DNA of 64,000 bases, from contig CAMASG010000003.1 of NCBI GenBank assembly GCA_945860945.1, positions 624 to 64,623 on the forward strand, in the 5' to 3' direction. The notes under the pieces were generated by a model that was not told the origin of the DNA, did no database searches, and was given only the letters and a program-made list of their open reading frames with translations. Within the stretch, counting starts at the first letter, position 1, and every line of letters begins with the position of its first letter. Made by a program: the position numbers and the translations under genes. Below are positions 2,942 to 49,224 of the stretch, in pieces. Source of the stretch: Akkermansia muciniphila (GTDB lineage Bacteria > Verrucomicrobiota > Verrucomicrobiia > Limisphaerales > SIAT01).

Positions 2942-3050
2942 GCTGCCCGCTGGGAGAGAGAGGTGATGGGGCTTGGGGCTTCGCTTACTTGAAGCTCAAG
3001 ACCGGTTTCTCGTGTGGAAGGGCCGGTCTAGTTGAGTAATAGATAGAGAG

Positions 3051-3620
3051 CTATTTCTTGCTATTCATTCTCGCCTCTGATTGAGCGCGAAAGGAATCTA
3101 CAAGCGTCTCATCCTTAAAGTCTCCCTCTGAACGATTATGATACAGATAAATATGAGTAGCTTCGTGAACTGGAACAGAGATATACCAAAGGCTTGCCGT
3201 CTTTACGTCAATATTATCTAGATGCCTGTTATTATAAGCGAATTTGAAATCGCTGCATCCCGTACTAGCGATGCGGAATTGGTCGTCAGAGTAATAGTCG
3301 TTCACCTCCTTCACGTTCGCTTTGACGTAAGCCCATCCTTGCGGGTCTTGCTTCTTCAACAGCTTGAACAGCCCGACAATCTTCTCTCCGCGAGCTTTGG
3401 TGCTGGTAACAATCTGGATGCCATCGAAAGACAACTCGCTCTTAACTACTGCCGGAGCCTTCGCCGCAGTGACGGTAGAGACACGAAGCGCGGTACGGGA
3501 GTTCTTCTTTACAATCTGACCCTGCACCACAGCAGACTTCTTCTGAAGGTTCGTGAGGTACGCGCTCTTCACATCCGCGTGAGCCATACCCGCCAGCAAA
3601 AAGATAATTAAGTATTTCAT
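3051..3620 (-). CDS. secreted hypothetical protein with an HEATH (HExxH-type) motif, in a low-GC islet
   Basis: 189-aa ORF with signal peptide MKYLIIFLLAGMAHA|D. The C-terminal part contains VPVHEATHIYLYH. Codon and GC usage is visibly AT-richer than in the flanking genes. Confidence 0.6.
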   Translation of the reverse strand: MKYLIIFLLAGMAHADVKSAYLTNLQKKSAVVQGQIVKKNSRTALRVSTVTAAKAPAVVKSELSFDGIQIVTSTKARGEKIVGLFKLLKKQDPQGWAYVKANVKEVNDYYSDDQFRIASTGCSDFKFAYNNRHLDNIDVKTASLWYISVPVHEATHIYLYHNRSEGDFKDETLVDSFRAQSEARMNSKK

Positions 3621-4124
3621 ATTTTTAGTTGGTGTCGGGCTTCTCCGCTACGATGGAGCCGAACCCGAAGTGGTGAGAGTATGACTGGTTGATTATTGTC
3701 TACCGTCGTCGAGCATCTCTGTTGGGTCAAGGGGGAGGTTCTCGTATTCCTCAATCTCCACCTGTGCGCTTGAACTGTTTATGCTTGTTACCCTTGCGGG
3801 TGCGTCTACTGGCGGCTAATTCGCCCTCGCTTCCCTACGCCTATCATCGCTAGTTCGGGCGGTTTCTTTCACCGGACGTCAGGTTATTTCATCGGCAATG
3901 GAGCCAACTTCTCCGATTCGCGCCTTTCCGACGGTGTTTTGGCTGTTTCCTCTAAAAACTCGTCCTTTGACTCGGGAGTCAAACGCTCTAACTCACGAGT
4001 CAGACGACCAAACTCTCCAGTGAAACGTCCTGACTCGCGGGTGAAAGGTCGAAATTCCTGGGTCAAAAGGCGAAACAGGAGACAAAACGGCTCAGTTTGA
4101 GGGGGGAGCGAGGCTGGGGTTGGA

Positions 4125-4640
4125 TTAACTGCTGCGCGGGGCGGTTTTTGAGCTGGGGATGGATTCTTCGGCGGCGTCGCGGCAGGCGTCGGCCATGAGG
4201 GAGAGGTGTTCGAGGAACCGTTCGCGGTCTTGCTCGGGGAGTACGGTGAGGATTTGCGATTGGAGCGTCACGGCGAGGGCGCGCAGTTCGGTGTATTTCC
4301 GGCGGCCGGCGGGCAGGAGGATCACGCGGCGCGCGCGTCGGTCGGTTTCATGGGGGCGGCGTTCCACCCAGCCGGCTTTCTCCATCCGTTCGAGGAGGGA
4401 GGTGACGGTGTTCGGGTCGCTGCTCATCAGGCGGGAGAGTTCGCCTTGGGTGAGTCCGGCGCGGTCGCCTTCGCGCAGGCAGCGGAGGGCGGTGAACTGG
4501 TCCGGCGTGGCGCCGGTGCGGGCGATGCGGCGGCGGAAGGCTTGGTTCAATCCATACCACGCGCGGCGCAGCAGGGGCGGCAGGCGGCGGCGGTCCGGCG
4601 CGTCAATCGGCAGCTCGGCTTTGGTTGAATGTGCGGGCAT
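4125..4640 (-). CDS. MarR-family transcriptional regulator
   Basis: 171 aa. The winged-helix region GLTQGELSRLMSSDPNTVTSLLERMEKAGWVERRPHETDRRARRVILLPAGR is a typical MarR signature. The gene is divergent from the downstream operon. Confidence 0.85.
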   Translation of the reverse strand: MPAHSTKAELPIDAPDRRRLPPLLRRAWYGLNQAFRRRIARTGATPDQFTALRCLREGDRAGLTQGELSRLMSSDPNTVTSLLERMEKAGWVERRPHETDRRARRVILLPAGRRKYTELRALAVTLQSQILTVLPEQDRERFLEHLSLMADACRDAAEESIPSSKTAPRSS

Positions 4641-4802
4641 GAGGGTGAGTCAACAGTCTTGCTAAATCATACGAGTGCGTATTATTTGGTTGCAAACCTT
4701 TTCTCACTGGCGAAAACTTTGCGCCGGTCTGCGAGCAACTTGGGGTTTTCCGCGCGCGGCCGGCCTGCTAAGACAGAGAGACAACAATCTCAAAGAGACA
4801 CG

Positions 4803-7127
4803 ATGAAACGCTCATTCCTCCGCGGCCTGCTCACCGTCACGCTGCTCGTCGCCACTCAACTTCCCGCCGCGCCTGCGAAGGGCTGGCTCTCGTGGCGCGG
4901 CCCGAACCAGAACGGTTCCTCCAACGAGAAGGGGCTGCCCTCCACGCTGGATCCGAAGGCGGCGTTGTGGACGGCGGATTTCCCCGGTCAATCCACGCCG
5001 GTGATTGCGGATGGCAAACTCTACATCGTCGGCTATCTCGGCGAGGGCGCGGAGCTGCAGGAGGGCGTGGCGTGCTTCGACGCGGAGACGGGCCGGAAGC
5101 TTTGGCAGCGGCTCGACAGCGATTATCTGAGCGACGTGATTTACAACCGTTACGCGACCTCGAGCCCAGTGATCGATCCCGAGACGGGCAACGTGTATGT
5201 GCAAGGAACGCAGGGGTTGCTGGGCGCGTTCACGCCGGACGGCAAGACGGTCTGGCAACATTCGCTGATGGAATCGCTCGGGCGCCTCACCTTCCCGAAC
5301 GGCCGCACGGCATCGCCGGCGGTGGATGGCGACCTGCTCATCACGCGCGGCATCATGGCGAACTGGGGCGCGCAAGGTCCGGCGGCGGATCGTTTCTACG
5401 CGTTCGATAAGAAGACGGGTCAACTGGTCTGGTCCTCGACGCCCGGCGACCGGCCGAAGGATAACTCCTATTCGTATCCGCATTTCATGTTCCTCAACGG
5501 CCGGCGCGTGTTCGTCGCCGCCAATGGCGACGGCAGCGTGACCGGCGCGAACGCGCGCACGGGCGAACCGCTCTGGCGCATCCCGCTCTTCCGCGCCGGC
5601 ATCAACGCGACCACCGTCGTCCACAACAACGACAAGATCATCGCTGTTTTCGGCACGCCGTATGAGCCCGGTCAGATGGTGGCGATGAAGCTCCCGACCG
5701 TCGTCCCGACCAGCGCGACGAACGCGCCGGTGGTGGTCGAGCGCGCCACGGTCGAGCTGTGGAGCAACGAGCTTTCGACCTCGGCGAGCCATCCGATTCT
5801 CGTCGGCGACCGGCTTTATCTCGTGGTGGAGAAGGGCGACCTCGCCTGCGTGGACGTGAACAACGGCAAGGTGCTTTGGAAGCTCAAGCTCGGCATCGAG
5901 CAGCGCAACGCCTCCCTCGTCGCCGCGGACGGAAAGCTTTACGTGCCGATTCTCGACAACCCCGCGGGCGGCAAAGTCGAGTCGGGCAGCGAGACCGGCA
6001 CGAAGGGCGGCTTCTACGTCATTCAGCCCAGCGATAAGGAAGGCAAGATTCTCTCGCACGTGGAGCTGGACGGGCGTTGCTACGGCACGCCCGTCGCCTA
6101 CAACGGTAAGGTGTATGTGCAGACCACGAAGAAGATTTATTGCTTCGGCACGAAAGGGAACAACCCCGGACTCGCCACTGTCACGCCCGAGAAATGGCCC
6201 GCCGCCGGCAAGCCCGCGCAGTTGCAAATGATCCCGAGCGAGGTGCTGATCAAGCCGGGTGAGAAGGCCGAGTTCCGCGTGCGTCTGCTCGATGCGAATG
6301 GCTTCACCGTCGGTGATGTGAAGGATCCGCAGGCTGTGAAATGGGCGAGCTACATCCCGCCCACGGCGAGGGTGCGCGCGACGATGAAGGGCGCGTTCAA
6401 CGATGAAGGCCAGCTCGTCGCCGCTATGGATCTCACGCCGAGCGCCGGGGCATTCATGGCGACGTATCAGGGTCTCACCGGCGTGATTCGCGGCCGCGTG
6501 TTGCCGGGTCTGCCGTTGAAGCAGGACTTCGAATCGTTCCAGATTACTGAGAAGCACGAGACCGAACCGGACACGCTGTTCGCGTATCCGCCGCTGCCGT
6601 GGATTGGCGCGCGGTTCAAGTTCGAGGTGCGCGAGAAAGACGGCAGCAAGGTGCTGGCGAAGACGATCGACAACAAATTCTTCCAGCGCGGATCGGTCTT
6701 CCTCGGCGAATCGACGATGAAGAGTTACACCGTGATGGTGGACGTGATGACCGACGGTAATCGGCGCAAGATGAGCGACGTCGGTGTCATCAACCAGCGC
6801 TACTACATCGTCCTCAAAGGCAACGAGCAGAAGCTCGAGATCAACTCGAACCAAGAACGCCTGCGCGTGCCGGCGGCCGATGAGCCGAGCAATTTCAAGT
6901 GGGCGCCCGCGACGTGGTATCGCCTCAAGAGCCGCGTGGATGTGAAGCCCGACGGCTCCGGCGTGGTCCGCGCGAAGGCGTGGAAACGCGACGAGTCCGA
7001 GCCGACCGCATGGACGCTCGAGGTGCCTGTGAAGCACGCGCACGCGGCGGGTTCGCCCGGCCTGTACGGCTTCGCGCCGCAGGAGATGCGCGTGTACATC
7101 GACAACATTCTCGTGACGCCGAACTGA
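4803..7127 (+). CDS. secreted PQQ-like beta-propeller repeat protein with an Ig-like segment and a C-terminal jelly-roll (LamG/DUF1080-like) domain
   Basis: ORF 4629..7127; the likely start is ATG 4803 (MKRSFLRGLLTVTLLVATQLPAAPA, a signal peptide). It has repeated W-x-x-x-x-G...(V/I)xxGxLY(V/I) propeller blades (WLSWRGPNQNGSS, DGKLYIVGY, GKVLWKLKLG, DGKLYVP, NGKVYVQ). An Ig-like stretch reads LIKPGEKAEFRVRLLDANG. The C-terminus ends ...SPGLYGFAPQEMRVYIDNILVTPN. Confidence 0.75.
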   Translation: MKRSFLRGLLTVTLLVATQLPAAPAKGWLSWRGPNQNGSSNEKGLPSTLDPKAALWTADFPGQSTPVIADGKLYIVGYLGEGAELQEGVACFDAETGRKLWQRLDSDYLSDVIYNRYATSSPVIDPETGNVYVQGTQGLLGAFTPDGKTVWQHSLMESLGRLTFPNGRTASPAVDGDLLITRGIMANWGAQGPAADRFYAFDKKTGQLVWSSTPGDRPKDNSYSYPHFMFLNGRRVFVAANGDGSVTGANARTGEPLWRIPLFRAGINATTVVHNNDKIIAVFGTPYEPGQMVAMKLPTVVPTSATNAPVVVERATVELWSNELSTSASHPILVGDRLYLVVEKGDLACVDVNNGKVLWKLKLGIEQRNASLVAADGKLYVPILDNPAGGKVESGSETGTKGGFYVIQPSDKEGKILSHVELDGRCYGTPVAYNGKVYVQTTKKIYCFGTKGNNPGLATVTPEKWPAAGKPAQLQMIPSEVLIKPGEKAEFRVRLLDANGFTVGDVKDPQAVKWASYIPPTARVRATMKGAFNDEGQLVAAMDLTPSAGAFMATYQGLTGVIRGRVLPGLPLKQDFESFQITEKHETEPDTLFAYPPLPWIGARFKFEVREKDGSKVLAKTIDNKFFQRGSVFLGESTMKSYTVMVDVMTDGNRRKMSDVGVINQRYYIVLKGNEQKLEINSNQERLRVPAADEPSNFKWAPATWYRLKSRVDVKPDGSGVVRAKAWKRDESEPTAWTLEVPVKHAHAAGSPGLYGFAPQEMRVYIDNILVTPN

Positions 7128-7150
7128 TCCAACCCAACCACCGAATTCTT

Positions 7151-8737
7151 ATGAACACGAACAACTCGCTCTTCGCCGCCGCGCTCGCGCTGGCGTTCGC
7201 ATCTACTGCCATCGCGCAGGATTGGCCGCAGTGGGGCGGCAACGATCCCGGCCGCAATATGTATTCGCCCGCGAAGGGTCTGCCCGACCGTTTCGAGCCG
7301 GGCAAGCTCAAGCGCGGCACCGAAGAGGTGGACCTCGCCACGACGAAGAACGTGAAGTGGGTCAGCAAGCTCGGCTCGCAGAGCTACGGCAACGTGACCA
7401 TCGCGAACGGCCGCGTGTACATCGGCACGAACAATGATTCGCCGCGCGACAAGGCGCATCAGGGCGACCGCTCCATCTTGATGTGCCTCGATGAGAAGAC
7501 CGGCGCGCTCCTCTGGCAGCTCGTCGTGCCGAAGCTCAAGTCCGGCAAAGTGAACGACTGGGAATCGCTCGGCCTGCTCGCTTCGCCGACCATTGAAGGC
7601 AACCGCGTGTATGTCGTCACCAGCCGTTGCGAAGTGCTTTGCCTCGATGTCGAAGGCATGACGAACGGCAACGATGGTTACAAAGACGAGGGCAAATACA
7701 TGGTGCTCGATGTCGTCGGCAAGGACGGCAAAGCGGTGCCGGCGGTCACGCCCGGCCCGAAGGACGCGGACATCATCTGGCGCTACGACATGATGGATGA
7801 GCTCGGCGTTTTCCCGCACAACGCTTCCAACAGCTCCGTGCTCATCGTGGGCGACACGCTGTACGTCTGCACTTCCAACGGACAGGACTGGACGCACTCG
7901 AACATTCCTTCGCCGAACTCGCCGAGCTTCGTCGCGTTGAACAAAAAGACCGGTAAGCTCGAGGGCGAGGACGACGCGGAAATCAGCAAGCGCATCTATC
8001 ACGGCCAGTGGAGTTCGCCCTCCACCGGCAAGGTGAACGGCAAGTCGCTCGTCTTCTTCGGTGGCGGCGACGGATGGTGCTACGCTTTCGATTCCGTGCC
8101 GAAGAAGGAAGGCGACTCGGCTTTCCTCAAGACGGTCTGGAAGTTCGATTGCAACCCGCCTGAGTACAAGAAGGACAAAGAGGGCAAGACGATCAAGTAT
8201 CCCGCCGCCGAAGGTCCGAGCGAAGTAAACGGCACGCCGGTCTTCTACAAGAACCGCGTGTACATCGCGACCGGTCAGGACCCCGAGCACGGCGAAGGCA
8301 TCGGCCGGCTCGTTTGCTTGGATGCCACCAAGACCGGCGACGTCACCAAGACCGCGCTCAAATGGGAATACCGCGGCATCAAGCGGAGCATCTCGACGGT
8401 CTCGATTGATCCGGCGACGGGCTTGCTCTTCGTCGGTGACTTCTCCGGCTTCGTCCATTGTCTCGATGCCGAGACCGGCAAACTCTACTGGGTGCACGAT
8501 ATGAAGGCGCACATGTGGAGCTCCACACTCGTGGCGGACGGCAAGGTGTATGTCGGTGACGAGGACGGTGATTTCGTGGTGCTCGCGGCGACGAAGGAGA
8601 AGAAGGTGTTGAGCGAGACGAATCTCGGCGCACCCGTTTACTCCACGCCTGTCGTGGCGAATGGCGTCATCTACATCGCCAGCAACACCCATCTCTTCGC
8701 GTTGCATGATGCCGCACGCGCGACCATCAAGCCGTAA
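7151..8737 (+). CDS. secreted PQQ-like beta-propeller repeat protein
   Basis: ORF 6899..8737; the likely start is ATG 7151 (MNTNNSLFAAALALAFASTAIAQDWPQWGGN, a signal peptide). It has repeated propeller-blade motifs (NGRVYIGT, GALLWQLVVP, GNRVYVVT, GDTLYVCT, NRVYIATG, GKLYWVHD, DGKVYVGD, NGVIYIAS). Confidence 0.8.
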   Translation: MNTNNSLFAAALALAFASTAIAQDWPQWGGNDPGRNMYSPAKGLPDRFEPGKLKRGTEEVDLATTKNVKWVSKLGSQSYGNVTIANGRVYIGTNNDSPRDKAHQGDRSILMCLDEKTGALLWQLVVPKLKSGKVNDWESLGLLASPTIEGNRVYVVTSRCEVLCLDVEGMTNGNDGYKDEGKYMVLDVVGKDGKAVPAVTPGPKDADIIWRYDMMDELGVFPHNASNSSVLIVGDTLYVCTSNGQDWTHSNIPSPNSPSFVALNKKTGKLEGEDDAEISKRIYHGQWSSPSTGKVNGKSLVFFGGGDGWCYAFDSVPKKEGDSAFLKTVWKFDCNPPEYKKDKEGKTIKYPAAEGPSEVNGTPVFYKNRVYIATGQDPEHGEGIGRLVCLDATKTGDVTKTALKWEYRGIKRSISTVSIDPATGLLFVGDFSGFVHCLDAETGKLYWVHDMKAHMWSSTLVADGKVYVGDEDGDFVVLAATKEKKVLSETNLGAPVYSTPVVANGVIYIASNTHLFALHDAARATIKP

Positions 8738-8808
8738 TCCAACATCCAATCCAACCTGTGACGCGGCCGTTTCCGTGTCGCGACACCCTGTTTTAACGAA
8801 CCAAATTT

Positions 8809-9888
8809 ATGTCCCTCAAATATCCCGCAAACCCCGCCGCCGCGCAGGCTGAACTCGACGCGCACGCGGTCGAGATGGTCAAGTGGCACTTCAGCCCCGA
8901 GACCGGCACGCCCTTCTGGCTCGACTGGGCGAAGAAGAACTTCGACCCGCGCACCGAGGTGAAGTGCTTCGCCGACATCATCACCAAGTTCCCGCATTTC
9001 CAGGATGAATGGCTGCGCGACCTGCAGCCCGAGGTCTGGGTGCCGGCCGCTTTCAAGGGACAGCCGTTCAACATTTTTGAGACCGGCGGCACGACCGGCA
9101 TGCCGAAGCAACGCATCGGCTGGAACGATTACAAGGTGGACTACAGCGAGTTTGCCGAGAAGATTTCCGACGAGCATTTTCCGCGGGATCATTACTGGCT
9201 GATGATGGGCCCGACCGGTCCGCGCCGCCTGCGCCTCGCCATTGAGCATCTCGCGAACGTCCGCGGCTGCGCCTGCTACTTCATCGATCTCGATCCGCGC
9301 TTCGTGAAAAAGGTCATCTCGAACAAGCAGTTCGACGTCGCCCGCGCCTACATGGATCACGTCGTGGACCAAGCCGTCATGCTGCTCAAGAACCGCAAGA
9401 TCAGCGGCCTCTTCACCACGCCGAAGCTGCTCGAGGCCCTCGCCGAGAAGGTGAACATCCACGAGGCCGGCATCCGCGGCGTCTTCTGCGGCGGCACCAC
9501 GATGACCCCGCAGTATGTCCGCTTCATCGTTGAGGAAGTGCTCGAGGGCAAGATTGGTTTCTATCCGACCTACGGCAACACGCTCATGGGTCTCGCCGCG
9601 AGCGTCCCGATCAAGCCGGAGGATAATTTCTCCATCACCTATTACTCGCCGCAGCCGCGCGCCGTGCTCCGCGTCGTGAAGCCGAACCAGACCGACACGC
9701 TCGTGAACCACGACGAATGGGGCCGTGTGGAGCTTACCACGCTCACGAAGGAATTCTTCATGCCGCGATTCCTTGAACGCGACGAGGCCCTCCGCCGCTC
9801 CGCCCGCGCGCCGTATCAGTGGGACGGCGTCGGCGACGTGCGCCCCTTCGGCGCGATGGAAAAGAACATCGTCGAAGGCGTGTACTAA
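8809..9888 (+). CDS. short ANL-superfamily adenylate-forming enzyme (PaaK / coenzyme F390 synthetase / LuxE-like size class)
   Basis: 359 aa. FETGGTTGMPK matches the (S/T)GGTTGxPK adenylation motif and PTYGNTLMG matches the YGxTE-type motif. It has no recognisable carrier or condensation domain. Confidence 0.7.
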   Translation: MSLKYPANPAAAQAELDAHAVEMVKWHFSPETGTPFWLDWAKKNFDPRTEVKCFADIITKFPHFQDEWLRDLQPEVWVPAAFKGQPFNIFETGGTTGMPKQRIGWNDYKVDYSEFAEKISDEHFPRDHYWLMMGPTGPRRLRLAIEHLANVRGCACYFIDLDPRFVKKVISNKQFDVARAYMDHVVDQAVMLLKNRKISGLFTTPKLLEALAEKVNIHEAGIRGVFCGGTTMTPQYVRFIVEEVLEGKIGFYPTYGNTLMGLAASVPIKPEDNFSITYYSPQPRAVLRVVKPNQTDTLVNHDEWGRVELTTLTKEFFMPRFLERDEALRRSARAPYQWDGVGDVRPFGAMEKNIVEGVY

Positions 9889-9900
9889 GCCGCGCCCCTG

Positions 9901-10203
9901 ATGAACAAGAGAGCTGTTGGCGTATTGTTCGGCCTGTTGGTGGCGGGCTTGTTGCTCGCTGGCTGCGCGCCATCCAATTGCACGCCTTCTAAATCCAAAG
10001 GGCCGGTTCTCGAGGGCGATATTCAGCTCTGCTTGCTTTGGGAGAGGCCGGTGCCGAGGCAGGGCGAGATTGGCAGTTCCGGTTCCACGACATTCACCTC
10101 GGGCCGCATCCAGATTTATGAGCACTTCATCTGCGTGGTTGAAACCAAGGGGATGAAGCACGTCGCGCCGCATGATTCGTTTTCAAACGTCCATTTCAAG
10201 TAA
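9901..10203 (+). CDS. small lipoprotein of unknown function
   Basis: 100 aa. MNKRAVGVLFGLLVAGLLLAGC carries a lipobox (LLAGC). The gene is wedged 12 nt after the adenylating enzyme and 5 nt before the ALDH-fold gene. Confidence 0.6.
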   Translation: MNKRAVGVLFGLLVAGLLLAGCAPSNCTPSKSKGPVLEGDIQLCLLWERPVPRQGEIGSSGSTTFTSGRIQIYEHFICVVETKGMKHVAPHDSFSNVHFK

Positions 10204-10208
10204 TCACC

Positions 10209-11639
10209 ATGAGCCTCCCACACATCCCCGTCCTGCGGCTTGGCCGCAGCTACGAAAGCCTCGACAAGGTCAACATCGCCAACTGTCGCAACGGCGAGAT
10301 CATCGCGCAGGTCAGCACCGTCAACGCTGGCATCCTGCGAAAGGATTTGCAGAAGGTCGCCGGCGCGCGCGCCTCGTTGAAGAAGTTCACCGTCGCGCAG
10401 TTGCTCGAGATCACCTCGAAGGCCGCCGATCTTTTCCTCACCGCCACGCTGCCGCTCGGCGACAAGGGCCACACGCAGTCGCCCGATGATTTCGTCAAGA
10501 CGCTCTCCAGCACCAGCGGTTTGCCGCACGTGATGGTGCGCCGCAACATGACGCGCATCCACGCCGCGATGAGCAATATGAAGACCGTGCTCAACGGCCT
10601 TACGCGCGGCATGGACCTCTCCATCCTCGACCGTGGCTTCGGCCAGACCGGCGGCACGGCGGTGAGCTTCTATCCCAACACGCAGGCGCTCGGTCTCGTG
10701 ATGCCGAGCAACTCGCCCGCAGTAAACTCGCTCTGGCTCCCCTCCATCGCGCTCAAGACACCGGTCATTCTCAAGCCCGGCCGCGAAGAACCGTGGACGC
10801 CGTATCGCCTCATGCAGGCCTTCATCGCTGCTGGCTGTCCGGCTGAGGCGTTTGGTTTTTATCCGACCGACCACGAGGGCGCGGGCGAGATTTTGAGAAG
10901 CTGCGGCCGCGCGCTTATCTTCGGCGATAAAGCCACCACCGCGCAGTACGCCAACAATCCCAGCATCAACGTCCACGGTCCCGGCTACAGCAAAGTGCTC
11001 ATCGGCGAAGACGAGATTGAGCGCTGGCCGGAGTTCATCGACCTCATCGCCGAATCCATTTCGGCGAACGGCGGCCGCAGTTGCCTCTGCGCTTCCGCTG
11101 TCGTCGTGCCGAAGTATGGCGCGGAGATCGCCGACGCGCTCGCGAAGAAAATCGGCCCGTACGCGCCGACTGCGCCGGATGACGAGACCGCCGTTCTCTC
11201 CGGCTTTGCCAACGCGAAGATGGCCGATTACATCGACGGCGCGATTGATGCCGATTTGAAAATGCCCGGCGCCACAGAAGCCACGGCCAAGTATCGTAAC
11301 GGCCCTCGCAAGACTGTGGTGGACGGCGGCATTTATCTGCGGCCGACCATCGTGCAGTGCGAGTCGTTCGCGCACCCGCTCGCGAACCGCGAGTTCCTTT
11401 TCGCGTACGCGAGCGTCGTCGAATGTCCGCAGTCCGAGATGCTCGGCAAGATCGGCTACTCGCTCGTCACCACCGCCATCACGAAGGACGAGGCGTGGAT
11501 TTCGCAACTCCTCGAGTGCCGGCATATCGACCGCCTCAACGTCGGCCCGATTTCCACGATGAAGATTTCGTGGGATCAGCCGCACGAAGGAAACATGTTC
11601 GAGTTCCTTTACAAACGGCGTTCATTCGAGCGTGCGTGA
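10209..11639 (+). CDS. aldehyde-dehydrogenase-fold enzyme, probably thioester reductase / acylating type
   Basis: 476 aa with ALDH-like architecture. A Cys-motif-like GGRSCLCA (C292) sits where G-(Q/E)-x-C-x-(A/C) is expected. The ELGGK-motif position reads VHGPGYSK (H256), so the general-base Glu is missing. This alignment was done by eye. Confidence 0.7.
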   Translation: MSLPHIPVLRLGRSYESLDKVNIANCRNGEIIAQVSTVNAGILRKDLQKVAGARASLKKFTVAQLLEITSKAADLFLTATLPLGDKGHTQSPDDFVKTLSSTSGLPHVMVRRNMTRIHAAMSNMKTVLNGLTRGMDLSILDRGFGQTGGTAVSFYPNTQALGLVMPSNSPAVNSLWLPSIALKTPVILKPGREEPWTPYRLMQAFIAAGCPAEAFGFYPTDHEGAGEILRSCGRALIFGDKATTAQYANNPSINVHGPGYSKVLIGEDEIERWPEFIDLIAESISANGGRSCLCASAVVVPKYGAEIADALAKKIGPYAPTAPDDETAVLSGFANAKMADYIDGAIDADLKMPGATEATAKYRNGPRKTVVDGGIYLRPTIVQCESFAHPLANREFLFAYASVVECPQSEMLGKIGYSLVTTAITKDEAWISQLLECRHIDRLNVGPISTMKISWDQPHEGNMFEFLYKRRSFERA

Positions 11640-11702
11640 TGGGGCAAGTGGGATTGAAACTAAAGTTGCCACTGCGCGTCTGAATCCGAATCGCAGACGC
11701 GA

Positions 11703-12857
11703 ATGAATTTGAATTCCTCACCCGCTGAACTGAGCAAGCGCACCGAGTTCGATGTCGAACTCCACCTCCGCCTCATCTTCGGCGCGGGAAGTATCGGTCG
11801 CGTGGGACAGATTGCGCGGGAAGTGGGCGGCAAACGCGCCTTGGTCGTCACCGATTCCGGCATCGTGAAAGCTGGTCACGCGGGCAAGGTCATCGGCCTG
11901 ATTGAAGCCGCGGGACTCGAAGCCGTCTGCTTCGATCGCGTCCGCGAAAATCCCGACACCACCGTCGTGGACGAATGCGTCGCCGCCGCGCGCGCCGCGA
12001 AAGCGGATCTCCTCATCGGCCTCGGCGGCGGCAGTTCGATGGACACCGCGAAGGGTTGCAATTTCATCCTCACCAACGGCGGCCGGATGCACGACTACTG
12101 GGGCGTCGGCAAAGCGACGAAGCCGATGCTGCCGCTCATCGCCATCCCCACCACTGCTGGCACCGGCAGCGAGTGCCAGTCATTCGCGCTCATCTCCGAT
12201 CCCATCACGCACCAGAAAATGGCCTGTGGCGACAAGAAGGCGATGGCGCGCGTGGCGATTCTCGATCCTGAATTGACCGTCTCGCAGCCACCACGCGTCA
12301 CGGCTTGCACCGGCATCGACGCCGTTGCGCACGCAGTGGAAACGGCAGTGACGAAGAAACGCAACGAGACTTCGCTCGCCTTTTCGCACGCGGCGTTCGC
12401 GTTACTTGCGGCGAACTTTGTCCGTGTTTTGGAAAACCCGCGAGACCTCGCCGCGCGCGGCGCGATGCTTCTCGGCGCGGCTTTCGCCGGGACCGCCATC
12501 GAGCACTCGATGCTTGGCGCAGCGCATTCGGCGGCGAACCCGCTCACCGCGCACTTCAGTATCATCCACGGCCAAGCTGTCGGCTTGATGCTGCCGCACG
12601 TCGTCCGCTTCAACGCCGTCGAACCTGAGACCGCGCGCGGCTACGAGGCGATTGCGGATTCGGCCGAGACGTTGGCGACGCAACTTGAAGCATTGTTGAA
12701 GCACGCCGGCCTCAATCGTTCGCTCACGGAACTCGGTGCGAATCGGGAGATGATTCTCGTGCTCGCCGAAGAAGCCTCGAAGCAGTGGACCGCGAGTTTC
12801 AATCCGCGCACGATTGCTGAGGCGGATTTCCGTGCGATGTACGCGGCTGCATTCTAG
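11703..12857 (+). CDS. iron-containing (group III) alcohol dehydrogenase
   Basis: 384 aa. It has GLGGGSSMDTAKG, the glycine-rich NAD motif of Fe-ADHs, and His-rich metal-site segments (GIDAVAHAVE, HSMLGAAHSAANPL...HG). Confidence 0.85.
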   Translation: MNLNSSPAELSKRTEFDVELHLRLIFGAGSIGRVGQIAREVGGKRALVVTDSGIVKAGHAGKVIGLIEAAGLEAVCFDRVRENPDTTVVDECVAAARAAKADLLIGLGGGSSMDTAKGCNFILTNGGRMHDYWGVGKATKPMLPLIAIPTTAGTGSECQSFALISDPITHQKMACGDKKAMARVAILDPELTVSQPPRVTACTGIDAVAHAVETAVTKKRNETSLAFSHAAFALLAANFVRVLENPRDLAARGAMLLGAAFAGTAIEHSMLGAAHSAANPLTAHFSIIHGQAVGLMLPHVVRFNAVEPETARGYEAIADSAETLATQLEALLKHAGLNRSLTELGANREMILVLAEEASKQWTASFNPRTIAEADFRAMYAAAF

Positions 12858-12893
12858 CAAAAAGAAAACCGCCGCCCGTTGCCGAGCGGCGGT
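12858..12893 (-). terminator. hairpin terminator shared by convergent genes (T-tract on the minus strand)
   Basis: A perfect 8-bp stem ACCGCCGC / GCGGCGGT (12868-12875 and 12886-12893) is present. The minus-strand reading is followed by TTTCTTTTTG. It lies between the Fe-ADH stop and the EF-hand gene stop. Confidence 0.5.
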
Positions 12894-12918
12894 CTGCAGA
12901 ATTCAATCTGAAGAGGGA

Positions 12919-13188
12919 TTACTTCTTGTCCTTCTTCTTGCCGGGTCCGAAACCGGGGAGCTTGGCGTCAGCGGCCTTCTTCTTGTCATCGTCGCTGATC
13001 TTGGCGCGCTCATCCTTGTCGAGCTTGCCGTCCTTGTTGGTGTCGTACTTCTCGGTGATTTCCTTCAAGGTCGTCTTCTGAGCCTCGGTGAGTTCGACCT
13101 TCTTCTTTTCCACCTTCTTCTCGTCGGCGGCGTTCACGGTCACGGCCACGGCGCACAGGGCGGCGGCAATCCACAGGGTGTTCTTCAT
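12919..13188 (-). CDS. small secreted lysine-rich protein with one canonical EF-hand loop
   Basis: ORF 12919..13230; the likely start is ATG 13188 (MKNTLWIAAALCAVAVTVNA, a signal peptide). DTNKDGKLDKDE fits the 12-residue EF-hand loop (D1, N3, D5, G6, L8, E12). Confidence 0.6.
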   Translation of the reverse strand: MKNTLWIAAALCAVAVTVNAADEKKVEKKKVELTEAQKTTLKEITEKYDTNKDGKLDKDERAKISDDDKKKAADAKLPGFGPGKKKDKK

Positions 13189-13343
13189 AGCAGGGGTTTT
13201 GTGTTGTTTGTGTTGTTTGGCGTATGCCAACTAAGCATACGATGGGACTAGACGGGCGAGATTGAAGCAAGGTTACAGCCACTTGGCAATGCCCGAGTCG
13301 TTCGCAGGCTTGCGGCGGGGAATGCTTTGGGATACCCAGAAGC

Positions 13344-14198
13344 GTGGTCACGAATGAATTCGCCGATGCCGCCCTCGTGCTCGTGGGCCACGGCTCGACG
13401 CTCAACGCCGAGTCTGCTGCGCCGACGTATCAGCACGCGGACGAGCTCCGCCAGCGCGGGACCTTCGCGCAAGTCGTCGAGACCTTTTGGAAGCAGGAGC
13501 CGTATCTCCCTGGCGTACTGCGCGGCGTGTTCGCCCCGCGCGTTTTCGTCGTGCCACTCTTCATCAGCGAGGGCTACTTCACCGAGGAGGTCATCCCGCG
13601 CGAACTGGGCTTCTGCGGCAAAGGTGAGAAGGAGTTTGCGAAGGTGCAACAGCGCGGCGCACAAACGCTTCATTACTGCGGGCCGATCGGCACGCACGAT
13701 TCGATGACCGACGTCCTGCTCGCCCGCGCCCGCGAAGTGGTGGAGAAGCACCCCTTCCCGTCCACGCCGAAACCAGCCGACACTGCCCTGTTCATCGCCG
13801 GCCACGGCACGGGGTTAAACGAGCGTTCCCGCGAAGCTATCGAGCGGCAGGTGGAGTTGATCCGCGCCAAGAATCTCTACGCCGAAGTTCACGCCGCATT
13901 CATGGAAGAGGAGCCGCGTATCGCCGCCTGCTGGCAAATGGCGCAGGCCAAGAACCTCGTGATGGTTCCGTTCTTCGTCAGCGACGGCCTGCACAGTTAC
14001 GAGGATATTCCCGTGATGCTCGGCGAACCGGAACCCGTGGTGCGCGAGCGCCTCGCGGCCGGCCAGCCGACATGGGGTAATCCGACCGAGCGCGAAGGGA
14101 AGCGCCTCTGGTATTCCGCCAGCATCGGCAACGAGCCGAAGATCGCGGACGTCATTCTCCAGCGCGTCCGTGAGGTGGCGATTCGAGCGCGGACGTAG
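13344..14198 (+). CDS. cbiX: sirohydrochlorin chelatase, long two-domain CbiX type
   Basis: 284 aa with two repeated halves, each carrying the (L/F)(V/I)xGHG(S/T) motif (LVLVGHGST, LFIAGHGTG) and acidic/His segments (PLFISEGYF, PFFVSDGLHSYEDIP). Confidence 0.7.
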   Translation: MVTNEFADAALVLVGHGSTLNAESAAPTYQHADELRQRGTFAQVVETFWKQEPYLPGVLRGVFAPRVFVVPLFISEGYFTEEVIPRELGFCGKGEKEFAKVQQRGAQTLHYCGPIGTHDSMTDVLLARAREVVEKHPFPSTPKPADTALFIAGHGTGLNERSREAIERQVELIRAKNLYAEVHAAFMEEEPRIAACWQMAQAKNLVMVPFFVSDGLHSYEDIPVMLGEPEPVVRERLAAGQPTWGNPTEREGKRLWYSASIGNEPKIADVILQRVREVAIRART

Positions 14199-14245
14199 TC
14201 CCCTCGCTTCTTGCCCCTCGGCCTCCGGCTGCTTACAGTCCCGCC

Positions 14246-15127
14246 GTGCAGTTTGAGAAAATCACCTTGGTCGGCGTCGGCCTGCTCGGTGGCTCGCTCG
14301 GTCTGGCCGTCCGCCAGCGCCGACTCGCCGGCCGCGTGGAAGGCTACGTCCGTCGCGCTGCCAGCGTGATCGAGTGCGAGAAAATCGGTGTGGTGGACCG
14401 CGCCACGGACGACCTCGCTGCTGCTGTCAAAGATGCCGACCTCGTGGTGCTCTGCACGCCGCTCGCGCAGATGCGCCGGTTGACTGAGCAATTTCTCCCG
14501 TCGCTCAAACGCGGCGCGATTGTTACGGACGTCGGCAGCGTGAAAGCTTCCGTCGTTGCTGAACTGGAATCGCTCGTCGCCTCCGCCGGCGCGCATTTTG
14601 TCGGTGGTCATCCGATGGCCGGTGCGGAGAAGGTCGGTTCCTCCGCCGCTCGTGCGGATCTTTTCGAAGACGCCGTTTGTGTCATCACGCCCACGGCGAA
14701 GTCGTCATCCGAAGCGGTTCGCCGCGTGGAAGAATTCTGGAAGTCGCTCGGCGCGCGTCCGCTGCGGCTCGCGCCCGAAGCGCACGATGATCTCGTCGCC
14801 CGCTCCAGCCACCTGCCGCACGTCGTCGCGGCTGAACTTGCGAACTATATTCTCAGTCCCGTGCATCCGAAGGAACAGGCGCAGCTCTGCGCCGGCGGTT
14901 TCCGCGATAGCACCCGCATCGCCTCGGGTTCGCCCGAGATGTGGCGCGACATCGCGCTCGCCAACCGCGTGAATCTCGACCGCGTGCTCGGTGTTTTCAT
15001 CGAGGATTTGCAGGAGTTCCAGCACGCGCTCGAGCATGGCGACGCGAAGGCGGTGGAAGAGTTTTTCGTGAAGGCCAAGCAGCGTCGAGACGCCTGGCGC
15101 GCGCCGAATTCTCACCCCGCCGAGTGA
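14246..15127 (+). CDS. tyrA: prephenate/arogenate dehydrogenase
   Basis: 293 aa with a GTG start. It has a Rossmann motif LVGVGLLGGSLGLA, then DVGSVK and FVGGHPMAG, which are typical of TyrA. It sits directly upstream of aroA. Confidence 0.85.
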   Translation: MQFEKITLVGVGLLGGSLGLAVRQRRLAGRVEGYVRRAASVIECEKIGVVDRATDDLAAAVKDADLVVLCTPLAQMRRLTEQFLPSLKRGAIVTDVGSVKASVVAELESLVASAGAHFVGGHPMAGAEKVGSSAARADLFEDAVCVITPTAKSSSEAVRRVEEFWKSLGARPLRLAPEAHDDLVARSSHLPHVVAAELANYILSPVHPKEQAQLCAGGFRDSTRIASGSPEMWRDIALANRVNLDRVLGVFIEDLQEFQHALEHGDAKAVEEFFVKAKQRRDAWRAPNSHPAE

Positions 15128-47621: not shown

Positions 47622-47694
47622 GCCCATGTAGCTCAGTTGGTAGAGCACGTCCTTGGTAAGGACGAGGTCATCAGTTCAAGCCTGATCATGGGCT
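47622..47694 (+). tRNA. tRNA-Thr (anticodon GGT)
   Basis: Manual cloverleaf: acceptor GCCCATG/CATGGGC, D-arm GCTC-AGTTGGTA-GAGC, anticodon arm CGTCC-TTGGTAA-GGACG, T-arm ATCAG-TTCAAGC-CTGAT. CCA is encoded at 47695-47697. Confidence 0.9.
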
Positions 47695-49045: not shown

Positions 49046-49118
49046 ACGGCGTTAGCTCAATTGGCAGAGTAGCGGTCTCCAAAACCGTTGGTTGGGGGTT
49101 CGACTCCCTCACGCCGTG
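49046..49118 (+). tRNA. tRNA-Trp (anticodon CCA)
   Basis: Manual cloverleaf: acceptor ACGGCGT/ACGCCGT, anticodon arm GCGGT-CTCCAAA-ACCGT, T-arm GGGGG-TTCGACT-CCCTC. CCA is encoded at 49119-49121. This is the classical position between tuf and secE. Confidence 0.85.
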
Positions 49119-49137: not shown

Positions 49138-49224
49138 GGAGGGGTGGCAGAGTGGTCTAATGCGGCGGTCTTGAAAACCGCTGTGGGCTAACGCTCACCG
49201 GGGGTTCGAATCCCTCCCCCTCCG
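49138..49224 (+). tRNA. tRNA-Ser (anticodon TGA), class II with a long variable arm
   Basis: Acceptor GGAGGGG/CCCCTCC, anticodon arm GCGGT-CTTGAAA-ACCGC, variable stem GTGGGC/GCTCAC, T-arm GGGGG-TTCGAAT-CCCTC. CCA is encoded at 49225-49227. Confidence 0.8.

Follow-up and report, generated by a model that had tools for sequence, protein, structure and literature searches.

A 64,000-nucleotide (nt) stretch of a verrucomicrobial contig filed under Akkermansia muciniphila (CAMASG010000003.1 of assembly GCA_945860945.1), which in its full length we call the window, carries a marR gene and, divergent from it, six genes for two secreted beta-propellers, an ANL adenylating enzyme, a short open reading frame (ORF), an aldehyde dehydrogenase (ALDH)-fold protein, and an iron-type alcohol dehydrogenase (Fe-ADH). 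We lean toward reading this locus as a MarR-repressed system for the uptake of a carboxylic acid and its reduction to an aldehyde and then to an alcohol. The ANL enzyme and the ALDH-fold protein very probably make up a reductase of the GriC/GriD type. The enzyme pair is thus of an already known kind; what is new is its conserved, phylum-wide, MarR-controlled setting with two secreted propellers and a monocarboxylate importer. Literature searches found no report of this verrucomicrobial setting, and searches on arylcarboxylate reductase terms returned none either. The features of the locus, with lengths in amino acids (aa), are as follows.

4125-4640, minus strand: marR, MarR-family regulator, 171 aa (Pfam MarR 52 bits, MarR_2 45 bits)
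4666-4685, no strand: predicted MarR operator, an imperfect palindrome kept in the family's MarR/propeller-1 intergenic regions
4803-7127, plus strand: propeller 1, 774 aa, predicted secreted (PQQ_2 99.8 bits)
7151-8737, plus strand: propeller 2, 528 aa, predicted secreted (PQQ_2 78 bits; AlphaFold model)
8809-9888, plus strand: ANL adenylating enzyme, most likely of the EhpF/GriC type, 359 aa (alignment with EhpF)
9901-10203, plus strand: 100-aa ORF with a lipobox (LLAGC), no family match
10209-11639, plus strand: ALDH-fold protein, very probably a reductase of the EhpG/GriD type, 476 aa (BLASTP against EhpG)
11703-12857, plus strand: Fe-ADH, iron-type (group III), 384 aa (Fe-ADH 172 bits, ADH_Fe_C 99 bits)
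12866-12895, minus strand: GC-rich hairpin, 13-bp stem, T-tract on the minus strand

An earlier interpretation made from the letters of the window (the sequence-only reading) had described a divergent MarR gene followed by six closely spaced genes on one strand, and the ORF map reproduces that arrangement, with gaps of 23, 71, 12, 5, and 63 nt between the six plus-strand genes. The start of propeller 1 is an internal ATG (4803) of the ORF 4629-7127, just before the signal peptide.

A probable two-component carboxylate reductase

The ANL protein is most likely an EhpF/GriC-type enzyme that lacks the C-terminal domain and activates the acid as one half of a two-component carboxylate reductase. 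Its residues 11 to 359 align with residues 14 to 366 of EhpF (PDB 3L2K/3HGU) at an E value of 1.4e-37. The Pfam AMP-binding model matched at 26.7 bits, under its gathering score, and the Pfam search gave no AMP-binding_C match, meaning that only the N-terminal domain is there. EhpF is itself reportedly described, in the paper on its structure, as an atypical ANL enzyme without a C-terminal domain. The motifs ETGGTTGMPK and TYGNT, which had led to the original ANL call for this 359-aa protein, are present in the sequence. Across the family the invariant elements are GGT(T/V)GxPK, YG(N/S)T, ERDxAxR, and a C-terminal EG(V/I)Y, and residues G93, G94, T95, G97, P99, Y255, G256, and T258 do not vary among the verrucomicrobial sequences and five outgroups.

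The ALDH-fold protein belongs with the partners of such enzymes. It matched the Pfam Aldedh model at 38.5 bits, and in BLASTP it matched EhpG at an E value of 5e-33 and the haloarchaeal partner protein at 4e-31; against canonical ALDHs in the PDB the best E value was only 4e-7. The catalytic Cys292 ('RSCLC') and the oxyanion-hole Asn168 ('PSNSP') are retained, and the Glu in the ELGGK motif of canonical ALDHs aligns with a His ('VHGPGYSK'), in agreement with the initial description of the fold as lacking that Glu. The same holds for the type as a whole: none of seven aligned EhpG-type partners departs from N168 or C292, and each has H, Q, Y, L, or R in place of the Glu. The ALDH-fold gene starts 320 nt past the ANL gene in the window, with a small inserted ORF between. 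The homology of both proteins to EhpF and EhpG supports the proposal, already made in the sequence-only reading, that the three cytoplasmic enzymes could take an acid to an aldehyde and then to an alcohol.

The Fe-ADH that would catalyze the last step has N- and C-terminal domains that both score over the Pfam threshold, as its first annotation implied, and reaches no specific equivalog. Among NCBIfam models it comes nearest to ErcA, GbsB, and lactaldehyde reductase, in each case scoring far under the cutoff. In most loci with an ALDH gene, the Fe-ADH gene follows it.

Several other families were considered for the pair. A likeness to the LuxE/LuxC fatty acid reductase had been proposed, and the chemical logic of that comparison stands: both systems combine a short ANL-clan acyl-activating enzyme with a thioester reductase of the ALDH superfamily. 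Family membership does not stand; the window proteins gave no match to the LuxE and LuxC models (Pfam PF04443 and PF05893) at E values up to 10, no LuxD-like transferase is present, and the EhpF/EhpG family, already named and in part characterised, had not been cited. EhpG itself gives a sub-threshold LuxC match of 18.5 bits. The ANL protein is not a PaaK or F390 synthetase either: F390_ftsA matched at 25.6 bits against a cutoff of 458.7, over the N-terminal 100 residues only, and PaaK was unmatched. The profile searches suggested earlier thus place the window proteins in none of the LuxE, LuxC, and PaaK/F390-synthetase families. Nonribosomal peptide synthetase (NRPS)-like carboxylic acid reductases (Car/Npt) also convert acids to aldehydes through an acyl-adenylate with ATP and NADPH, but in these a single chain of about 1,170 aa combines a carrier domain with an SDR-type R domain and has a phosphopantetheinyl transferase as its partner. 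A Pfam search found neither a peptidyl carrier protein domain, in line with the earlier remark that no carrier protein was visible, nor a terminal reductase domain in any of the seven proteins, and no phosphopantetheinyl transferase is present in the cluster.

An ANL enzyme that passes an aldehyde to the next enzyme would be expected to occur fused to such partners, and natural fusions were found: an EhpF-type ANL domain follows an N-terminal class-III aminotransferase in an 824-aa Streptomyces protein (P0309) and an N-terminal Zn-dependent ADH in a 725-aa metagenomic protein (P0360). Some Streptomyces ANL homologues, at 31 to 33% identity, are annotated 'arylcarboxylate reductase'. One such homologue, on Streptomyces angustmyceticus plasmid p1 (L084, 5826-12047), lies among futalosine-pathway genes (1,4-dihydroxy-6-naphthoate synthase, mqnE, and mqnC), with no ALDH partner listed adjoining, a context that hints at naphthoate reduction in a secondary-metabolite cluster.

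Relationship to known reductase systems

The EhpF/EhpG pair from the D-alanylgriseoluteic acid phenazine cluster of Pantoea agglomerans is a close described parallel in architecture. The ANL proteins correspond end to end (359 versus 366 aa), the ALDH partner has the Cys and Asn and lacks the Glu, and the genes are adjacent in the same order; on Pantoea plasmids ehpG, annotated as an 'aldehyde dehydrogenase family protein', comes directly after ehpF. EhpF and EhpG are tailoring enzymes for phenazine-1,6-dicarboxylate. Identity to the window proteins is only about 32% for the ANL and about 25% for the ALDH, and the Pantoea pair is plasmid-borne, whereas the genes of the verrucomicrobial clade are found on chromosomes throughout the phylum, at about 80% conservation.

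For GriC and GriD of the Streptomyces griseus grixazone cluster, the published account assigns formation of the acyl-AMP of 3-amino-4-hydroxybenzoate to an AMP-binding protein, and the reduction of this acyl-AMP to the aldehyde to a partner protein (PMC10179220, citing Suzuki et al. 2007). This is an acyl-AMP plus an ALDH-like reductase with no carrier and no coenzyme A (CoA), the chemistry we propose here, and the gene pair has the same architecture. The kinship of the window pair with GriC/GriD runs through homology to EhpF/EhpG and through the Streptomyces homologues annotated as arylcarboxylate reductases rather than through a direct comparison. The settings differ as well: GriC and GriD belong to a biosynthetic cluster that itself produces the acid, whereas the window cluster has no acid-forming genes, and the verrucomicrobial cluster has propellers, MarR, Fe-ADH, and, in relatives, importers.

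Two haloarchaeal modules, on Halalkalicoccus jeotgali plasmid 2 and a plasmid of Halomarina sp. PSR21, resemble the verrucomicrobial clusters that carry a transporter in having the order DUF3311-SSF-ANL-ALDH. Their ANL proteins, at 35% identity, are among the closest relatives in the plasmid database, and the SSF proteins are 28% identical (E value, 8e-45). Unlike the verrucomicrobial clusters they have no propellers and no Fe-ADH, with an SDR gene nearby in one, and their regulators are an IclR protein in one and a protein with helix-turn-helix (HTH) and ThiN domains (ThiR-like) in the other.

Distribution and gene linkage

A species scan with the ANL sequence, taking one genome per species, found the ANL locus in at least 593 species, of which the best 80 loci were kept. 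The ANL proteins are 77 to 94% identical to that of the window, and nearly all of the 80 kept records are labelled Verrucomicrobiota (Pedosphaera/Limisphaerales, Chthoniobacterales, and Verrucomicrobiales). Species scans with propeller 2 and with the ALDH-fold protein gave the same pattern. The cluster is therefore kept well beyond its source genome, which answers the question of neighborhood conservation raised by the sequence-only reading. In the 80 genome loci, median identity to the window is 81% for the ANL, 69% for both propeller 2 and the ALDH, 62% for the Fe-ADH, 60% for MarR, and 56% for propeller 1. In 80 metagenome loci propeller 2 is 71 to 93% identical. The ALDH-fold protein is 64 to 92% conserved. 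Close relatives of the ANL fill more than 8,000 90%-clusters, the top 120 of which are all at least 79% identical, and the whole ANL family, collapsed at 50% identity, comes to 199 representatives (E value below 1e-30), many of them fragments. By sequence, the verrucomicrobial ANLs are one tight, populous branch of an otherwise sparse family. Some cluster-bearing metagenome-assembled genomes carry odd organism labels, namely Akkermansia muciniphila (L004 and L073), Bifidobacterium (L006 and L007), Limnocylindria (L041), and Saccharimonadales (P0437); these are likely mis-binned or mislabelled assemblies.

Linkage depends on the gene from which it is viewed. Anchored on the ANL in the 80 genomes, 33 of the 53 loci whose flank is long enough have propeller 2 upstream, and the ALDH and the Fe-ADH are downstream in 25 and 22 of 63 loci; propeller 2 and the ALDH are both present in 15 of 46. 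Anchored on propeller 2 in the 80 metagenome loci, propeller 1 is upstream in every case (55/55) and the ANL downstream in 37 of 41, with an ALDH or Fe-ADH gene after the ANL in 12 of 32. Anchored on the ALDH in four long contigs, all four show MarR divergent from propeller 1-propeller 2-DUF3311-SSF-ANL-(small inserts)-ALDH-Fe-ADH. The tightest unit is MarR, divergent from propeller-propeller-(monocarboxylate transporter)-ANL, and gene order is constant even where propeller 1 is only 45 to 60% identical. The locus recurs in many species, and its arrangement is therefore far beyond chance. The six-gene operon first proposed does not hold as a conserved unit: the ALDH and Fe-ADH genes are contiguous in about 25 to 40% of loci, and a transporter is a usual member where the lipoprotein is not. 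The variable linkage of the ANL to the propellers and the ALDH may mean that the ANL is independent of its partners, or that the modules are merely dispersed. Outside the Verrucomicrobiota, 8 of 10 contexts examined have the ANL and ALDH genes side by side (Pantoea, Burkholderia, Streptomyces, two haloarchaea, and three metagenome lineages), several with an SDR or ADH gene adjoining.

This variability gives some room to a reading in which the ANL is an acyl-AMP ligase for another nucleophile (a protein, as for LuxE, an amine, or a thiol) and the ALDH and Fe-ADH are an optional side branch. The Fe-ADH gene comes directly after the ANL, with no ALDH between, in seven loci, which would fit such a role as the variable ALDH linkage does. 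We consider it improbable, since no gene for an alternative acceptor recurs downstream, the ALDH-anchored loci have the ANL adjacent in four of four cases, and the ALDH-fold protein is itself as well conserved as stated above.

In some loci, most of whose records bear Chthoniobacter or Chthoniobacterales labels, the genes after the Fe-ADH encode a PQQ_2 propeller, a HemN/HutW-like radical SAM protein, a halogenase/QhpG/LodB-type enzyme that uses flavin adenine dinucleotide (FAD), one more propeller, and a glycosyltransferase of family GT4 (L023, 11160-17900; L051, 13752-20900; L064, 4479-11516; L068, 14600-21000). This extension may be part of the system or a separate operon.

MarR and its predicted operator

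MarR control of the locus, proposed at the outset from the divergent gene, is now supported by a conserved palindrome that is a probable operator. In the window it reads ATCATAC-GAGTGC-GTATTAT (4666-4685, 20 bp), and the family consensus is ATAATACGTRTAGGTATTAT. Of 72 MarR/propeller-1 intergenic regions, 62 contain the palindrome with no more than two mismatches. Shuffled versions used as a control gave no match with fewer than three mismatches and a mean of 0.6 of 72 with three, the others having at least four. The site overlaps a promoter-like site for marR itself (4695-4666, minus strand). A marR ortholog is divergent at the same position in 47 of 51 propeller-2-anchored loci with enough upstream sequence, and the window protein combines the winged-helix MarR domain (52 bits) with the conserved inverted repeat in its divergent promoter region, as expected of the family. 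The window and four related loci gave no riboswitch match in Rfam.

The gene order and this operator bear on a reading in which the propellers and the reductase genes are unrelated neighbors under one regulator, with the ANL in a general role. Lone ANLs lend themselves to it: in 15 of 46 genomes the ANL lies among housekeeping genes, and the genes adjoining such lone ANLs are serS, plsX, gcvT, clpS, proB, and similar ones. From the propeller side, however, the ANL is nearly obligate (37/41), with constant order and strand and often a transporter between; the order is kept while propeller 1 diverges to 45 to 60% identity, and a single conserved operator lies upstream. Mere neighborhood is, in our estimate, quite unlikely.

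The transporter of related clusters

In 30 of 74 genomes a transporter gene separates propeller 2 from the ANL, and two kinds were found. One is an MFS protein whose best model is the aromatic-acid/H+ symporter family, followed by sialate and MhpT/PcaK-type models. The other is an SSF protein of the PanF/PutP/MctP type with a DUF3311 gene just before it, the arrangement of the MctP monocarboxylate/pyruvate permease (PMC9100948). No ortholog of the family SSF or MFS protein was found anywhere in the 64-kb window. The MFS gene at 1052-2887 of the window was considered as the missing transporter and rejected, because its product is unrelated to the family MFS.

These transporters matter for two further readings. 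The first is biosynthetic tailoring, in which the pair would reduce an acid that the cell makes itself, for a secreted metabolite or cofactor, and the propellers would use or process the product outside. All members with a reported or proposed role (GriC/GriD and EhpF/EhpG) and most other contexts are chorismate-derived aryl-acid clusters, and a few Chthoniobacterales clusters extend to radical SAM, FAD halogenase/QhpG-like, propeller, and GT4 genes. The verrucomicrobial cluster, however, has no acid-forming biosynthetic genes in it or beside it, the transporters encoded within clusters, SSF Na+ symporters and acid/H+ MFS proteins, are of families that serve uptake, a phylum-wide spread at about 80% identity is unlike that of a secondary-metabolite gene, and the Chthoniobacterales extension is confined to four to six loci. 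We regard tailoring as unlikely.

The second reading runs the pathway in the oxidative, energy-conserving direction, from alcohol to aldehyde, acyl-enzyme, and acyl-AMP, and finally to acid and ATP from AMP and pyrophosphate, with the ANL reversed. AMP-forming ligases can run backwards in some anaerobes, and thermodynamic plausibility and the missing hydrolytic Glu agree with this direction, but nothing more does. The associated transporters are of the acid-uptake type rather than exporters, no pyrophosphate-related gene is linked, and the precedent in the family is reductive (PMC10179220). The oxidative direction is thus very improbable.

The two secreted propellers

The two proteins that set this locus apart from the known reductase systems were called signal-peptide PQQ-like propellers at first sight, and that description is borne out. 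Both N-termini are hydrophobic and signal-like (MKRSFLRGLLTVTLLVATQLPAAPA for propeller 1 and MNTNNSLFAAALALAFASTAIA for propeller 2), neither signal peptide has a lipobox or any Cys, and PQQ_2 matches both, at 99.8 bits in propeller 1 and 78 bits in propeller 2. The two are 22 to 26% identical to each other and would be distant paralogs, which possibly form a heterodimer.

In propeller 1, a BamB-like propeller is followed by a C-terminal all-beta region of about 340 aa, earlier read as Ig-like and jelly-roll domains, that gave no Pfam match and, in a profile search against the PDB, no sequence match. Among 29 orthologs, Pfam offers no more than weak Polysacc_lyase matches, in 7 of them. A single-sequence AlphaFold model of the region reached a pLDDT of 37, that is, it failed. 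Propeller 2 was modelled as an 8-bladed propeller with a pLDDT of 88 and a pTM of 0.89. Its best Foldseek matches were BamB, tetrathionate hydrolase, and XoxF, all of them generic 8-bladed propellers, so that the fold comes without a clue to function. Propeller 2 shares with BamB and the pyrroloquinoline quinone (PQQ) dehydrogenases the 8-bladed fold (Foldseek TM score of 0.75 to 0.8 normalised to BamB) and the blade repeat motif, but it is about 150 aa larger and has an invariant polar set of its own. That set lies in a protein with large insertions and includes H223 and N224, H249 and N251, H284, and Q376-D-P-E-H380; from the alignment, these His, Asp, Asn, and Glu residues look like an active site or a metal site.

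Sequence and profile searches with the propellers returned only generic blades, those of BamB, designer propellers, and PQQ enzymes. Neither propeller is a BamB, with scores of 66 and 52 bits against cutoffs of 285 and 423 and no lipoprotein signal. Neither is a PQQ dehydrogenase: TIGR03075 scored 36 and 29 bits against 480 and TIGR03074 scored 23 and 14 bits against 833, generic blade matches only.

The Pfam model Beta-prop_ACSF4 also matches propellers of these loci (window 7151-8737 and L051 13752-14888). This model describes the propeller of the eukaryotic beta-alanine-activating enzyme, where it is fused to an ANL adenylation domain. If that is so, eukaryotes would have, in fused form, the same association of an ANL enzyme with a PQQ-like propeller, although the propellers of the present loci are secreted.

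Inserted genes and boundaries of the locus

The 100-aa ORF between the ANL and ALDH genes had been listed as a lipoprotein of the operon. Its lipobox is real, and its place in the system is not: tblastn matched the ORF in a single contig, L003, whose sequence is identical to that of the window. In the closest relatives (L004, L089, and L090), in which the ANL is 91 to 94% identical, the ANL-ALDH gap is about 9 nt and there is no 100-aa ORF, which marks it as a lineage-specific insert. It has no family match in Pfam or NCBIfam. Other genomes have other ORFs at this junction, including a ParE-type toxin with its partner, a WapI-domain ORF, and ORFs of 178 to 205 aa without assignment (L169, 8057-10004; L170, 9464-9945; L172, 8825-10004; L001, 11691-12260; in the window, 9901-10203). 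The differing ORFs make the ANL/ALDH junction an insertion hot spot.

At the 3' end, a hairpin at 12868-12893 had been taken to close the operon. The hairpin exists, at 12866-12895, and marks the 3' boundary of the operon, but no T-run follows its stem on the plus strand. The T-run is on the minus strand, so the hairpin is a terminator of the convergent gene at 12919-13230. Terminator-like sites inside the operon are no commoner than chance, and from the sequence co-transcription of the genes from the propellers to the Fe-ADH is plausible.

The convergent gene (12919-13230, minus strand) encodes a secreted protein of 103 aa that is rich in Lys and matches the EF-hand model under threshold, and the next two genes encode a CbiX-type chelatase and a prephenate dehydrogenase (13344-14198 and 14246-15127). 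None of these three neighbors (12919-15127) recurs beside the cluster in other genomes. On the other side, positions 3001-4000 of the window have a GC fraction of 0.49, against about 0.61 to 0.65 in the flanks, and this stretch may be a foreign insertion. An ORF for a 189-aa protein with a signal peptide and no Pfam family (3051-3620, minus strand) lies between the MFS gene (1052-2887) and marR. The only Rfam matches in the window are three tRNA genes (47622-47694, 49046-49118, and 49138-49224).

Proposed pathway

The steps of uptake and reduction, as we picture them, would run as follows. MarR would hold the palindrome between marR and propeller 1 until an effector, either the substrate or a related compound, releases it. 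The propellers would bind or convert an external precursor, or act on the acid itself, so that a monocarboxylic acid is delivered; this is the weakest step, and any specific role for the propellers is doubtful. The acid is probably imported, in most relatives by the DUF3311 plus SSF transporter (MctP/PanF type) or an organic-acid/H+ MFS protein. The ANL would adenylate it with ATP, and the catalytic Cys of the ALDH-fold protein would attack the acyl-AMP to give a thioester. Since the water-activating Glu is missing, the thioester would not be hydrolysed and would instead be reduced by NAD(P)H to the aldehyde, which the Fe-ADH would reduce to the alcohol. By analogy with the related systems, an aromatic or heteroaromatic acid is the most likely substrate. 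The homologies, the pattern of catalytic residues, the synteny, and the conserved operator are what the sequences show; which way the reaction runs, the uptake, the propeller role, and the substrate are what we infer in this scheme.

A number of points weigh against it. Neither propellers nor an ALDH gene lie within 10 kb of the ANL in 15 of 46 genomes, and the ALDH and Fe-ADH genes are contiguous with the ANL in only 8 to 9 of 32 propeller-anchored and 25 of 63 ANL-anchored loci. The window cluster contains no transporter gene, and the nearby MFS is unrelated to that of the family. The propellers have no recognisable catalytic homologue in the sequence searches. Catalysis in the verrucomicrobial clade is predicted through homology alone, and the single transcript is suggested by gaps and gene order. 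Finally, it is not obvious what a cell would gain by importing an acid actively and then spending ATP and two NAD(P)H on its reduction.

A more novel reading, less likely than not, is an as yet undescribed phylum-wide assimilation or salvage route, in which the propeller enzymes would release or capture an environmental acid that is then imported and reduced because the alcohol is the useful compound. Salvage of an oxidised thiamine moiety would need just such an acid-to-alcohol conversion, and for that reason we mention, as a low-probability lead, the reduction of a thiamine-derived pyrimidine-carboxylic acid to hydroxymethylpyrimidine (HMP) or of thiazole-acetic acid to hydroxyethylthiazole (HET). 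The hint comes from one locus only, that on the Halomarina sp. PSR21 plasmid (L173), in which a gene for an HTH plus ThiN protein (3353-4267, minus strand) is divergent from the module at 4267-8434, whose order is a small DUF3311-like ORF, SSF, ANL, and ALDH. The HTH plus ThiN combination is that of ThiR. ThiR is an archaeal regulator of thiamine biosynthesis and transport (PMC12029414). No thiamine pyrophosphate (TPP) riboswitch was found by Rfam in the window, in three verrucomicrobial loci, or in one haloarchaeal locus, and a cruder TPP motif search of all loci collected by then gave one match, inside a coding sequence. In the bacterial loci nothing points to thiamine.

Significance

Soil and fresh water hold many Verrucomicrobiota, and only a few of the gene clusters conserved in this phylum have an assigned function. 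The proteins of this locus are far more conserved than would be expected for an accessory pathway, and an enzyme type so far known only from the tailoring of antibiotics and pigments appears here in what looks like core physiology. The MarR protein and its conserved operator lend themselves directly to a ligand screen. Finding the substrate would give a first function to a very large and functionally blank propeller family, whose members are annotated 'BamB' or 'PQQ-binding-like'. It would also show what two-component carboxylate reductases that work without CoA do physiologically beyond secondary metabolism, and it would possibly provide compact, carrier-free carboxylate reductases for biocatalysis.

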